Source of the DNA: Paraspadella gotoi
Taxonomy: Eukaryota; Animalia; Chaetognatha
Direction of reading: 5' to 3'
NCBI GenBank assembly: GCA_051294375.1
Contig: JBJCIZ010000744.1
Coordinates: forward strand, 1,726,262-1,790,261
DNA: 64,000 nt
The number at the start of each line of letters is the position of its first letter. Within the stretch, counting starts at the first letter, position 1. This document shows, piece by piece, positions 5,606 through 19,850 of this stretch. The translations under genes were made by a program, and so were the position numbers. The notes under the pieces are model-generated. The model made no database searches, was not told the origin of the DNA, and worked only from the letters and a program-made list of their open reading frames with translations.

Positions 5606-8600
5606 ATGTCCGCCGCCTTCTCTCCCATCGCCTTCGTCGCCGCCTCCACGCCCGCCCCGCCGCCGAGAACGCCGCCGGAATCCGGCAGAGACGTCCGCCG
5701 ATTTTACGAGTCCGTCCTCGCCGATGGCGGAGTGGGTGACGGAAGTTCTCGGCGGAGAAGGGATGAAGAGGAGGAGAGGAAGGGAGGAGAGGGGAGAAGG
5801 GAGGAGGTTAGAAGGAGGAGGAGAGATGAGAGGAAGGTGGATAGAGGGAGAAGGGGAGAAGAGGAGAGAAGCAAGGAGGTTAGGAAGAGCTTAGAGGAGA
5901 GGAAGGTGGATAGAAGGAGGAGAAGAGTAGAGGAGAGAAGAGAGGAGGTTAATAGTAGGAACGAGGAGAGTAGAAATATCAAAGTGGAAGTGAAAGAGGA
6001 AATCAAGGAGGAAGTGACGGAGGAAATTATCATCGACGACGAAGAAGACGTTAAACCTCCTCCCCGTCTTCCTCTCTCCGTCTCCTCTTCCTCCTCTCAA
6101 TTCCCTCTCCCCTCCTCTTCCTCCTCCGTCTCTTTCCAAGAGAAGCGCTTCCGGTATCGATTCTTCGCTTCCGCTCAAAACGGCGACGAAGACGACGTCG
6201 CCGATTGTCTCCGTCGCGGCGTCGGGGTCGACGAAAGGGGTGAGTTATTTGGGGGGGGAGAGAGGTGGATGTATTATTTAAATAAATGTATTAATTAATT
6301 AATAAATGTTATGGTATCGTATGTATTTTCGTGGTCTACTACAGTCTTTTAAAAAATACCGTGATTTTTCCGAACATTATTTACTTTTTTAATCTATTTG
6401 ATAGCCTATTCATTGATTTTTACATTTCTCGTTTCCCCAATTTTGGCAAAAATCCGAGAGATTTACTTTTTTACTTTATCGGGATTAATTAATTTTTATG
6501 AAGGAAAGTCGTAGTAGTTTTCTTTTTGTGTCATTTTATGTCAAAGTTCCTTACAAATTGACGCATGTTTAATTCGATAGATTTTTAGGCTGGTGTCGGG
6601 ATTTTGACTTTTTCGCCAGAAGGGCAAAAAGTTTAAGAGCTCATTTTAAAATTTCAAATTGTGTTTAAAAATTCTCTTAAGTGTGACAAACTCTTTTATT
6701 TTTATTTTCCCGCGATTGCTCTCGCTGGAACCCGTCGTCTTTTCAAAATAATTTACTTTTTCTTGTACAAACAAAAATACAAAATGCTTTACCCACTTCT
6801 TCGAAGTTAGCTATTATTTTATTTCTCCGTTCGAATCGTCAAATTAAATTATTAAAAAGTTCAAACTTCAAACTGGTCTCCTCACTAATTTCTAAACCTC
6901 GTAACCCCTCGAACTTTTCGTCGAAAAAAAATGAGAGAGAGAGAGAGAGAGACACACCGACCGACCGACCTTCATAAAATGAGAGAGAGAGAGAGAGACA
7001 CACCGACCGACCGACCTTCATAAATTTCTCCGCAGCAATTTTTTCTCTCTCCGCCGCCGACGCGGCAGCTGCATCTCGACCTCCCCGTCCGCCGCTGCTG
7101 CCGCTGCTGACGGATCCAACCAAGCATTCCCTCTCATTTCTCGTTTTTCTCTACTTTTTTTTTTTTCAAATATTCAGAACCCGACTCTCTCTCTCTCGCT
7201 CTCTGTTTTTCTCCGCTCGTTGATCTTCTGGTAAATAAGAAGATATAACGAGTACTTGTTTAAAAATAAAATGTAAAAAATAGCTAAGATAAACCACGCC
7301 CACCTCTCTATTTCCACGAAGATTCGGCCAAGATATTCGATTTATTTTTAAAAATCGAACACCTGACCACCCCCCCCCAAAAAAAACAACCACCATGCGG
7401 ACGAAAATACGAGGAAAATCAATAAATAAAATGTTTTTATAAAAAAAATCTTCGCTGGAGTTTTGTTTTGGTTTTTTACAACAACAACAACAAGAAGAAC
7501 CTTCAACATCAAATCAACTACATCCTTAAGGATGGAGGGTCTCTCCCTCTACGACGACGCCATCGGCTACACCGAAGTGGAGATCGTCGACGACTCGATC
7601 GGCGACCAAGTCGAGATCTCCTCCTGCGCAGCGCTCGACGTTCCGCTGGAGACTGTGGAGACGACGGTGACGACCGGTTTGGGACATCACGTCGTCTCTC
7701 CAGCCGAGGCGGCGACGGACTTCGGGTCGACGGCGCTGAGGCTGCATCAGGATTTCGATCTCGGCTCGACCCTGGTCACTTTCGGGGAGTTGCCGGAGGC
7801 GTCGCAGGTTTGAAATAAGTTTGGAATTGATTGATTGATTGAATGAATGGATTCGGTTGTCGTTTTATATCATTTATATCATTTATAAATTACTTCAGGA
7901 ATAATACTTAAAGCTCAGTCTCCTTTAATTAAAAATATCAATACCAACACTCGCGATTATTTCGACGTTTCAGTCCAGTAATACTCTAAATATCGACTAA
8001 TATTGACTAATTAATTGTCAACGCGACTCAATTCTAACGTCGTCTCCCCAACAGGAGGAAGTGATCCTCTCCGGTCCTTTGGAGGAAGTCGTCACCGACT
8101 CGGACTTCCTCTCCGGCGTCTACGACTCCGTCCCGCTGCCCGTCGAGCATCGGGTCGTCGGTGAGGCGGGAGAGGGTGTTGAAGGGTGCTGGGGGTTTTA
8201 AAGGGGGGGAGTGGAAGAACGTTAGGGAAGGGGTTAATTTAAGAATAAAGGTAAGACGACTGGGTCGTTGTTGTTCTTTATTCTCACCGTATCTATATCT
8301 CTCTCTCTTTGAACCAAACTTAAAAAACACCTTACCCTCCTTCTTTCACTCACCCCTCCCCTTTTAAGGCGACCTCGACGACGCCCTCTGTCCCGTCTCC
8401 CTCTCCACGCCCACTTCCCGCTCCCGCCCTTCCTCTTACCGCCGCTCGCGCAAGGGCGGATCCAAGACCAAGAGCGTCAAGGGCAAGGGCCCTTCCTTTC
8501 CGGCGCCGTCCACGACGCCGGTCGACGCGTTCGGCGCCGATTTTTACGGCGAACACGCGACGATCGTCGCCGCGGCGGCGAAGGCGGAGCGGAGGAGGGA

Positions 8601-19850: not shown

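Follow-up and report, generated by a model that had tools for sequence, protein, structure and literature searches.

Nested genes have been described in several animal groups. In flies, 71.27% of them lie on the strand opposite to the host and about 29% on the same strand (PMC3814207, PMC5174743), and same-strand pairs make up 76 of the 296 simple nested pairs tabulated for human and 55 of the 248 for mouse (PMC8467205, Table 1). These accounts support the bias toward the opposite strand stated in a preliminary description of the locus studied here (PMC3814207, PMC8467205). The same-strand nested genes of Drosophila resemble this locus in that the guest lies wholly in a host intron on the host's strand and in that hosts with several guests are common, but as reported 72.5% of these guests are single-exon, the multi-exon ones have a median of one intron, many are young and testis-biased, and their hosts are long (PMC3814207, PMC5174743). 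In human and mouse, same-strand guests occur and can cause host exonization or early polyadenylation, and the genes found inside hosts are said to be short and without introns as a rule, whereas both guests here carry introns (PMC8467205, PMC3192792, PMC11694760). The ctenophore Hormiphora (PMC8527503) and the glass sponge Aphrocallistes (PMC10282587) have compact animal genomes with thousands of nested genes, and both have trans-spliced leaders; in Hormiphora many nested genes run parallel to the host, and the authors say that separate processing is required (PMC8527503). A YY1-family gene also lies within an intron of MBTPS2, on its host's strand: this is the retrogene YY2, which, according to the account cited, the general factor SAFB keeps intronic; unlike that retrogene, the YY1 described below bears introns (PMC10901741). 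In a literature search we found no report of a locus with GPANK1, YY1 and CutC, and supplementary lists of nested genes may hold guests that are comparably intron-rich and same-strand. The accepted reason for same-strand guests being mostly single-exon is selection against mis-splicing.

We analyzed a window of 64,000 nucleotides from the chaetognath Paraspadella gotoi in which GPANK1 holds YY1 in its first intron and CutC in its third, all on the + strand. This arrangement, and the four phase-compatible exons of the host, had been proposed in the preliminary description and are confirmed by open reading frames, Pfam and collinear homology. We think it probable that YY1 and CutC are intact multi-exon same-strand guests, that GPANK1 is likely produced by ordinary cis-splicing, and that the guests probably have their own promoters and poly(A) sites. 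Each guest lies wholly inside one GPANK1 intron, and the 3' extents seen in RNA end within those introns. Compared with Drosophila, the host is small, its coding sequence measuring 1.3 kb, and both guests are old and conserved, one of them carrying six coding introns. The host is composed as follows.

5606 to 6239, + strand: GPANK1 exon 1, with the ATG, the N-terminal FVAAS/RRFYE motifs and the first part of the ankyrin region; supported by the ORF, the donor and a homologue alignment that crosses the junction
6240 to 15467, + strand: GPANK1 intron 1, 9,228 nt, phase 1, GT..AG, containing YY1; junction inferred from homology
15468 to 15676, + strand: GPANK1 exon 2, an ankyrin repeat; supported by ORF and Pfam
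16309 to 16562, + strand: GPANK1 exon 3, with the CxxC...H motif and the first half of the G-patch; supported by ORF, Pfam and a contig of run X9
16563 to 19612, + strand: GPANK1 intron 3, 3,050 nt, phase 2, containing CutC; by elimination, skipped in X9 record 26
19613 to 19850, + strand: GPANK1 exon 4, with the second half of the G-patch, the RVTHF motif and the stop; inferred partner of exon 3 in X9 record 26

The four exons form one ORF of 444 aa, with GT..AG introns in phases 1, 0 and 2. With Pfam, exon 2 matches the ankyrin repeat (Ank; E 3e-8), and the last part of exon 3 matches a G-patch over its N-terminal half (E 1.4e-6); the joined model is collinear with homologues over all three junctions, for example with Trichuris P0140 over aa 159-444. 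The protein thus has the ankyrin repeat(s), then the CxxC...H motif and the C-terminal G-patch of the GPANK1 family and aligns with homologues over its full length, the nearest full-length matches being GPANK1-type proteins. The homologue search gave 22 matches, the named ones including bird and sea-urchin GPANK1 and nematode G-patch proteins (names were looked up for 20 of the GPANK1 or CutC matches); a separate word-indexed search returned none of 39 candidates for exon 3 and none of 547 for exon 4. The position of the intron 3 donor is a break point in relatives' sequences too.

Intron 1 contains the first guest.

7532 to 13394, + strand: YY1 coding region, 7 exons (7532-7807, 8055-8160, 8369-8632, 10768-10933, 11777-11993, 12516-12685, 13235-13394), 452 aa; matches to PDB 1UBD
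7040 to 7230, + strand: predicted non-coding YY1 first exon, with donor 7231 and acceptor 7531, one base before the ATG; from sequence only, 5' limit set by eye
13395 to 14633, + strand: YY1 3' UTR to the limit of contigs; nearest signals ATTAAA at 14495 and AATACA at 14631
9201 to 9600, no strand: 8 clustered YY1-site cores (GCCAT/ATGGC), within the YY1 intron after the EFSVAMW motif

The guest belongs to the YY1/Pho family, with four C2H2 fingers nearly identical to those of YY1. The YY1 zinc-finger structure 1UBD was the best match of exon 6 (E 1.5e-45); for exon 5 (E 4.5e-40) it stood fourth by total score and was the sole top match with a single stretch that passed. As read in the window, finger 2 is shorter by two residues (KR) than ESSKLKRHQLVH in 1UBD, and its SSKLKRH helix is not intact; this gap may be real, allelic or an error of assembly. 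An EFSVAMW motif is present, a candidate REPO domain, but it gave no PDB match at E up to 10. The splice between exons 6 and 7 agrees with X7 record 15 and with its bin depth, and the 3' UTR is covered by X7 record 16 (13534-14633) and by X9 record 25, which reaches 14389. The cluster of site cores is the densest in any 400 nt of the window, and none of 2000 shuffles reached 8 cores, in a region picked by eye; deuterostome YY1 is likewise reported to have an intronic cluster of its own binding sites (PMC2743690).

Intron 3 contains the second guest.

17398 to 18315, + strand: CutC coding region, 2 exons (17398-17607, 17785-18315), 246 aa; supported by Pfam and spliced in X9 record 29
18316 to 18921, + strand: CutC 3' UTR to the reach of the spliced contig (X9 record 29 runs to 18921; AATAAA at 18944)
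18485 to 18558, + strand: degenerate tRNA-Gly(GCC) copy, inside the CutC 3' UTR

The two exons match Pfam CutC with E 4e-24 and 4e-32 over profile positions 2-67 and 70-201 of 202, giving a complete PF03932 domain, and the protein matches 3IWP (E 1e-26). Its closest relatives are about 53% identical, and its intron position is a break point in relatives' sequences too. In X9 the CutC mRNA is spliced and ends near the AATAAA at 18944. A metagenome scan with the CutC alignment gave 80 loci of 35-49% identity, none with a GPANK1 match (tblastn, E 1e-3). The tRNA-Gly reported earlier in intron 3 is present but looks degenerate and lies inside the CutC 3' UTR. A functional tRNA-Gly(GCC) gene would be a fully paired cloverleaf with no genomic CCA, intact in all individuals; this copy has an A.G pair in the T stem, a C.A pair in the anticodon stem, a genomic CCA and, in one X5 contig, a 19-nt deletion. 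Local depth is very high.

We used public contigs to examine order and splicing, mapping them over 12,520-19,780 from 4 of the 11 listed runs; X9 and X7 were taken as probable RNA solely because their contigs are spliced, none of the runs being catalogued as RNA. Contig depths and the absence of X7 cover on GPANK1 exons 2 and 3 were left out of any expression ranking. Contigs from four runs, drawn from three studies, overlap along the whole of 12,520-19,764; among the pieces listed, gaps fall only at simple repeats. This tiling argues against misassembly within that stretch, a possibility raised in the preliminary description. The most informative contig, X9 record 26 (660 nt), contains the piece 16307-16560 with 237 nt before it and 169 nt after it and breaks at both splice sites of GPANK1 exon 3, with the same 2-nt AG shift as at the CutC intron in X9 record 29. 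Judging by the depth tables, neither CutC nor the rest of intron 3 can accommodate the 169-nt piece. The only AG in 19547-19613 is at 19611, and 19611 + 168 = 19779 falls within the mapped stretch. All other placements being eliminated, we assigned this 3' part to exon 4, and it is likely, as deduced from one contig of one run, that GPANK1 is spliced across CutC (16562^19613). A point against this reading is that X9 cover in exon 2 accounts for about 105 of the 151 mappable bases (33.7 observed, 48.6 expected). The CutC mRNA and the contig bearing GPANK1 exon 3 come from this same run.

Splicing of GPANK1 across YY1 (6239^15468) is predicted from homology and phase. We considered whether the 5' part could be wrong, either through an assembly misjoin of exon 1 and the YY1 start or because exons 2-4 are fed from a YY1 exon instead of exon 1. 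Contigs were mapped from 12,520 onward, the YY1 donors 8161 and 8633 are in frame with GPANK1 exon 2, and about 30 unplaced bases remain at the 5' end of X9 record 26, all of which would suit this idea. However, the absent half of the ankyrin repeat is just what exon 1 contributes, along with the N-terminal motifs of the family, in phase; the window contains no N, and order and strand are collinear, which makes an error of this kind quite unlikely.

Trans-splicing of GPANK1 pieces had also been put forward, in which an exon-1 transcript would be joined to exons 2-3 and exon 4 carried on read-through from YY1 and CutC. Both large introns do contain a guest 3' end, and X7 contigs run past the CutC poly(A) signal to 19611 with falling depth, but those contigs fit a host pre-mRNA equally well, collinear exons on one strand require no trans step, and nothing positive was found for it; we regard joining in trans as very improbable.

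The preliminary description held that a GPANK1 transcript must ignore at least 14 strong splice sites and that a dedicated mechanism is implied. Neither claim found support. Several guest sites score below the window medians (the CutC donor is 1.5 and its acceptor 5.2, against medians of 8.0 and 7.5), and the guest sites are balanced: because a guest's first exon has no acceptor and its last exon no donor, they can splice among themselves inside the host intron. The bracket model that we propose assumes the proximal-donor rule. Each guest acceptor has a nearer guest donor, and guest introns would be removed within the host intron like matched brackets, leaving the host donor free for the next host acceptor. 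Nested splicing has been described (PMC4829307), and multi-exon same-strand guests are uncommon but documented. New splicing machinery is probably not needed for this locus, and the remaining difficulty is narrower: the first guest acceptor, plus the poly(A) site of each guest. Those poly(A) sites may be read through some of the time by general suppression of intronic poly(A) sites (U1 telescripting, SAFB-type masking).

In favor of ordinary host splicing, no acceptor-like site above threshold occurs from 6260 to 7231. Some crossing between host and guest can nevertheless be predicted. Of the 13 predicted in-order mis-splices between host and YY1, 4 (acceptors 8369 and 10768; donors 8161 and 8633) are in frame to the normal stop and therefore would escape decay. 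Five acceptor-like sites fall in the stretch from the GPANK1 exon-3 donor to the CutC ATG, and an X7 contig begins at one of these, so splicing from exon 3 toward CutC is possible. That contig, X7 record 18, starts at 17087, the AG of predicted acceptor 17089, and has a 30-nt overlap with a contig of lower depth.

This start, together with the YY1 acceptor one base before its ATG, could mean that the guests have no promoters of their own and are released from transcripts started at GPANK1, by alternative splicing and guest poly(A) sites or by leader trans-splicing as in operons. Precedents are host/guest pairs with a common first exon reported in fly and mouse (PMC10901741) and the ctenophore, which is described as combining leaders with heavy nesting (PMC8527503). 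We consider it unlikely. GPANK1 exon 1 is coding and 634 nt long, and its join to 7531 is out of frame (a 257-aa product); a SNP at 17086 in X9 could account for the contig start; and no leader sequence was seen, an Rfam search of the 64 kb giving tRNA only, with no leader RNA and no snRNA. YY1-type sites near both guests and the predicted non-coding YY1 first exon suggest independent promoters instead. One CGCCATNTT site is located 205 nt upstream of the CutC ATG, and the sole other + strand CGCCATNTT site in the annotated first 41 kb is upstream of ARPC2. Very unlikely, too, is a scheme in which a polymerase starting at the GPANK1 promoter would produce all three mRNAs in a single pass, the guests being spliced and polyadenylated in the introns and released by a trans-spliced leader or re-capping, with exon tethering and intron-end stems joining GPANK1 across the cut introns; if true, it would be an animal operon built from introns, coupling the output of GPANK1, YY1 and CutC, with YY1 sites controlling the unit.

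Returning to cis-splicing of a continuous host transcript, we asked whether the intron ends pair, as had been suggested earlier. Among the 41 introns modeled in the window, which have a median length of 387 nt, the two with guests are the longest, at 9,228 and 3,050 nt. For the downstream gene and for ICE2 the intron models depend only on phase and an open frame, and in both genes the last acceptor is uncertain. The suggestion is supported for intron 3 only, whose predicted 24-bp stem has these arms.

16589 to 16612, + strand: 5' arm (purine tract), by RNAduplex
19508 to 19534, + strand: 3' arm (pyrimidine tract), by RNAduplex

The intron 3 ends pair at -69.1 kcal/mol, a stability reached by none of 150 local shuffles, with a residual z of -3.45 against non-cognate flanks. 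This stem may help bring donor 16563 to acceptor 19613. In the stem, SNP 19529 C>T leaves a G-U pair, while in one X4 contig single-nucleotide deletions at 16593 and 16599 fall within an arm. For intron 1 the stricter control shows no specific pairing, 63 of 150 local shuffles being as stable, and the acceptor flank of this intron forms a more stable pairing with YY1 donor 8161 (-46.2) than with the donor of the intron itself (-42.2). The structure-bridged introns of fish, (AC)m-(GT)n, and human, with G/C triplets, likewise have complementary ends predicted to join splice sites (PMC4691745), but here there is a single predicted purine/pyrimidine stem, in one intron, spanning a whole gene, and no class-wide signal.

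Could a general code of intron-end base-pairing match splice sites in this genome and permit same-strand nesting? In the window, donors are commonly followed by G/purine tracts and acceptors preceded by C/pyrimidine tracts, and for 4 of the 5 introns longer than 1 kb the cognate 3' flank is among the 3 best of 31 (mean residual p 0.017 additive, 0.004 log; post hoc). Against this, cognate pairs were no better than permuted ones over all 41 introns (12,421 of 20,000 permutations as good with 60 nt, 4,805 of 20,000 with 100 nt), intron 1 fails the local shuffle, and across 31 introns there is no significant trend with length (p 0.23 and 0.09). We rejected such a code for the window on the permutation result, and consider it highly improbable in general. 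The local-shuffle and residual tests used 31 of the 41 introns, 10 under 245 nt being dropped. Pairing across exons gave no signal (mean residual -0.57, sd 7.8, 34 pairs). An inverted-repeat scan gave 866 pairs; among the 25 listed, microsatellites and one intronic repeat dominate.

Because the guests keep their introns and regulatory sites, they most likely arrived by DNA-level movement into existing introns. An 11-mer search for target-site duplications between guest flanks gave none for YY1 and, for CutC, one 11-mer other than T-runs and one 12-mer, none convincing.

Same-strand nesting is already known, and the GPANK1 locus is an extreme case in its rare tail, since guests are usually single-exon; it does not demonstrate a new mechanism. 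It is also an annotation trap, as gene prediction that does not allow for nesting on one strand would either break GPANK1 up or merge it with YY1. Within 14 kb, a host of four exons contains two old intron-bearing guests, and messages of host and guest occur together in one RNA sample. The locus is small enough for the whole to be cloned as a minigene, which permits a direct test of how a polymerase passes through a complete gene on the sense strand, whether by balanced splicing inside the host intron, by suppression of poly(A) sites or by a stem that joins the intron's ends.

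Four exons joined on the window sequence give GPANK1 a single 444-aa ORF, with introns that are all GT..AG and have phases 1, 0, and 2. As the preliminary description had it, YY1 lies in intron 1 of this host (6240-15467), CutC lies in intron 3 (16563-19612), and host and guests are all on the + strand. The seven genes modelled in the first 41 kb of the window share that strand, and no gene was found past 41 kb of the 64-kb window. Besides the two guests, these are:

2-1550, + strand, SID-1 family channel, modelled gene
2257-4704, + strand, ARPC2, modelled gene
5606-6239, 15468-15676, 16309-16562, and 19613-19850, + strand, GPANK1 exons
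20368-29258, + strand, unnamed 11-exon gene, modelled, frame of last exon uncertain
29932-40845, + strand, ICE2/NARG2-like (PF10505), modelled gene

YY1 and ICE2 mark the source as an animal. The unnamed gene encodes acidic stretches, others rich in proline and histidine, and a C-terminal part with cysteines, and the five exon-level ORFs scanned gave no Pfam match; one of its introns holds a tandem array of ~30-nt units (21408-22140). An intronic interspersed repeat with inverted arms (MITE-like) occurs at 778-935, 4028-4147, 11111-11768, 22890-23165, and 39341-39605, and one YY1 intron has two facing copies of it (115 nt, 95% complementary).

Pfam identifies an ankyrin repeat in GPANK1 exon 2 and half a G-patch at the end of exon 3. 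An exhaustive HMMER search gave 22 matches for exon 3, 13 of which could be aligned with the joined model over at least two exons; the named matches were bird and sea urchin GPANK1 and nematode G-patch proteins. The homologue records P0140 (Trichuris) and P0152 aligned to aa 159-444 and 208-443, respectively, and an exon-split motif of 11 residues stood opposite 11 residues of a homologue.

The stretch 10,700-19,900 is present in nine public runs from three studies, and contigs from four of the 11 listed runs (X4, X5, X7, and X9) were aligned to 12,520-19,780. X4 and X5 are DNA-like: their contigs cross GPANK1 exon 2 uninterrupted (14672-16143 and 14506-16025), leave exon 3 (16230-16584), and enter exon 4 (19499-19764). 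The listed pieces of the four runs overlap from YY1 exon 6 to GPANK1 exon 4; the breaks between them all fall at simple repeats, close to 16,590 and 17,320-17,405. X5, X7, and X9 come from other individuals, because SNPs separate them from the window. Misassembly, raised at the outset as a concern, is made unlikely over 12,520-19,780 by these overlapping contigs. X9 and X7 behave as RNA, the kind of run being otherwise only guessed.

One assembled X9 contig (record 26, 660 nt) covers 16307-16560, coinciding with GPANK1 exon 3 once an AG shift of 2 nt is allowed for; 237 nt precede this piece and 169 nt come after it. The 3' partner was deduced by elimination. At the depth of this record, there is no space for the 169 nt before 19547 (bin means and single-base depths at 16627, 17793, 18498, 18522, 18960, 19053, 19365, 19529, and 19546); the sole AG within 19547-19613 is position 19611; and an exon-4 piece would stop at 19779, where a high-copy repeat interrupts contigs. 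Exon 3 is therefore very likely spliced to exon 4 over CutC. A short repeat of very high copy number occupies 19748-19776, at the end of exon 4. On the 5' side, subtracting exon 2 (209 nt) from 239 nt gives 30 nt, as much overlap as a graph branch should produce. Exon 1, a YY1 exon, or a leader may account for these bases, and X9 cover explains only ~105 of 151 alignable bases of exon 2. We find it very unlikely that the 5' part of the GPANK1 model is wrong, and likewise very unlikely that GPANK1 mRNA is made by trans-splicing.

CutC is a two-exon gene (246 aa, + strand) within intron 3. X9 record 29 connects 17605 to 17783, a junction that corresponds to the CutC intron after an AG shift of 2 nt. 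The record extends to 18921, past a tRNA and near AATAAA at 18944, the canonical CutC poly(A) signal. ORFs of the relatives P0126, P0127, P0008, P0132, and P0134 are interrupted at the CutC intron position, and those of P0138 and P0159 stop at GEGRR, the GPANK1 intron-3 donor, which points to introns that probably predate this species. The tRNA copy described earlier in intron 3 is present, in the CutC 3' UTR, as a degenerate or repeat-borne copy: it has two mismatched stem pairs and a genomic CCA, one X5 contig carries a 19-nt deletion in it, and its surroundings are high-copy. An X7 contig begins at a predicted acceptor, on its AG (17087-17089), 309 nt upstream of the CutC ATG, and was noted together with about 16755. 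This start may reflect an intron in the CutC 5' UTR, splicing from host to guest, or an allele bubble; splicing from host to guest would fit guests carved out of host transcripts, which we regard as unlikely.

YY1 comprises seven exons (452 aa, + strand) within intron 1 and matches 1UBD, a PDB structure with YY1 zinc fingers. X7 record 15 begins at the exon-7 acceptor, with 195 nt preceding, and its first-bin depth of 51.7 equals 166 nt of YY1 exon 6 at the record depth of 75.7. The gene retains six coding introns, and the intron after the EFSVAMW motif, which we take to be at the same position as deuterostome intron 1, carries eight GCCAT/ATGGC cores within 400 nt (9201-9600); this cluster is the window's densest and was reached by 0 of 2000 shuffles, in a region first picked by eye. 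It resembles the autoregulatory YY1-site cluster placed in deuterostome YY1 intron 1, unlike Drosophila pho, where the cluster is absent, according to PMC2743690. The six introns and the own-site cluster therefore argue that YY1 is an old locus transferred at the DNA level and not a retrocopy.

Finger 2 (11948-11965) reads as 10 residues, two (KR) fewer than 1UBD, a helix deletion that would be surprising if real and is possibly an allele or assembly error. In finger 3, G replaces K (GCGGRF), which is common to the aligned runs. The putative REPO region, in which EFSVAMW is present but no PDB match came up to an E of 10, looks divergent, and this and the finger-2 shortening count against a fully normal YY1. 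Read-through of the last donor meets a stop right after it (12686-12689; HAKSK then stop, 401 aa), and this form, a possible shorter isoform, matches 1UBD one residue beyond the spliced form. Three tandem copies of a 21-nt unit (8633-8690) repeat the YY1 donor together with the end of exon 3:

8633, 8654, and 8675, + strand, tandem YY1 donors, all in frame

The nearest YY1 poly(A) signals are non-canonical (ATTAAA at 14495 and AATACA at 14631), and the 3' UTR has very high-copy short repeats of GTCG units (13511-13582).

That a GPANK1 transcript must ignore at least 14 splice sites, as first reckoned, is not required, since guest donors and acceptors can pair among themselves. In each guest, the first exon lacks an acceptor and the last exon lacks a donor, and each guest acceptor on the host transcript is therefore closer to a guest donor than to the host donor. 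Should a proximal-donor rule hold here, the guest introns would be spliced out first, leaving the host donor waiting for the host acceptor. No acceptor-like site over threshold lies within 6260-7231, and five such sites lie from the GPANK1 exon-3 donor to the CutC ATG. Internal splicing within long introns is described for dystrophin (PMC4829307). The harder step for the host transcript is getting past two guest poly(A) sites. Suppression of intronic poly(A) sites is general (telescripting). In human and mouse as well as in fly, SAFB holds same-strand nested genes intronic (PMC10901741). By analogy, the guest poly(A) sites could be passed via these general safeguards.

Over the 41 modelled introns (SID-1, ARPC2, GPANK1, the unnamed gene, ICE2, YY1, and CutC), of which GPANK1 introns 1 and 3 are the longest, the two ends of an intron had no pairing advantage over permuted ends: 12,421 of 20,000 permutations were as good at 60 nt and 4,805 at 100 nt. 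The ends of intron 3 are an exception, with a predicted duplex of -69.1 kcal/mol and a 24-bp core (16589-16612 with 19508-19534) whose stability no shuffle matched among 200 dinucleotide and 150 stricter local ones; the residual z is -3.45 among 31 introns, for a match first spotted by eye, before the tests. The ends of intron 1 passed the dinucleotide shuffle (0/200 at 120 nt) but failed the local one (63/150), and its acceptor flank pairs more strongly with a YY1 donor flank. Three further introns had z ≤ -2.5 in the local test. For the window, we rejected a general intron-end pairing code, which the permutation null and intron 1 leave highly improbable; pairing may nonetheless aid GPANK1 intron 3. 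Of the preliminary interpretation, nesting, strand bias, and, as a candidate, intron-3 pairing survive; the ignored-site count, the implied dedicated mechanism, and pairing for intron 1 are not supported. We consider it probable that this is true nesting, with a cis-spliced host, independent guests, general safeguards, and a probable intron-3 stem.

The opposite-strand bias of nested genes is borne out in Drosophila, where 71.27% are opposite-strand and same-strand guests are 72.5% single-exon, with otherwise a median of one intron (PMC3814207, PMC5174743). Same-strand simple nested pairs number 76 of 296 in human and 55 of 248 in mouse (PMC8467205, Table 1), and the bias is slight once non-coding genes are included (PMC11694760). 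Nested genes number 2,357 in Hormiphora, where many run parallel to the host (PMC8527503), and 2,432 in a glass sponge (PMC10282587); interference by nested genes (PMC3192792) and structure-bridged introns (PMC4691745) are documented. Same-strand nesting is known, and the literature searches listed no paper on such an arrangement; thus, the GPANK1 locus is a new, extreme case of already known same-strand nesting.
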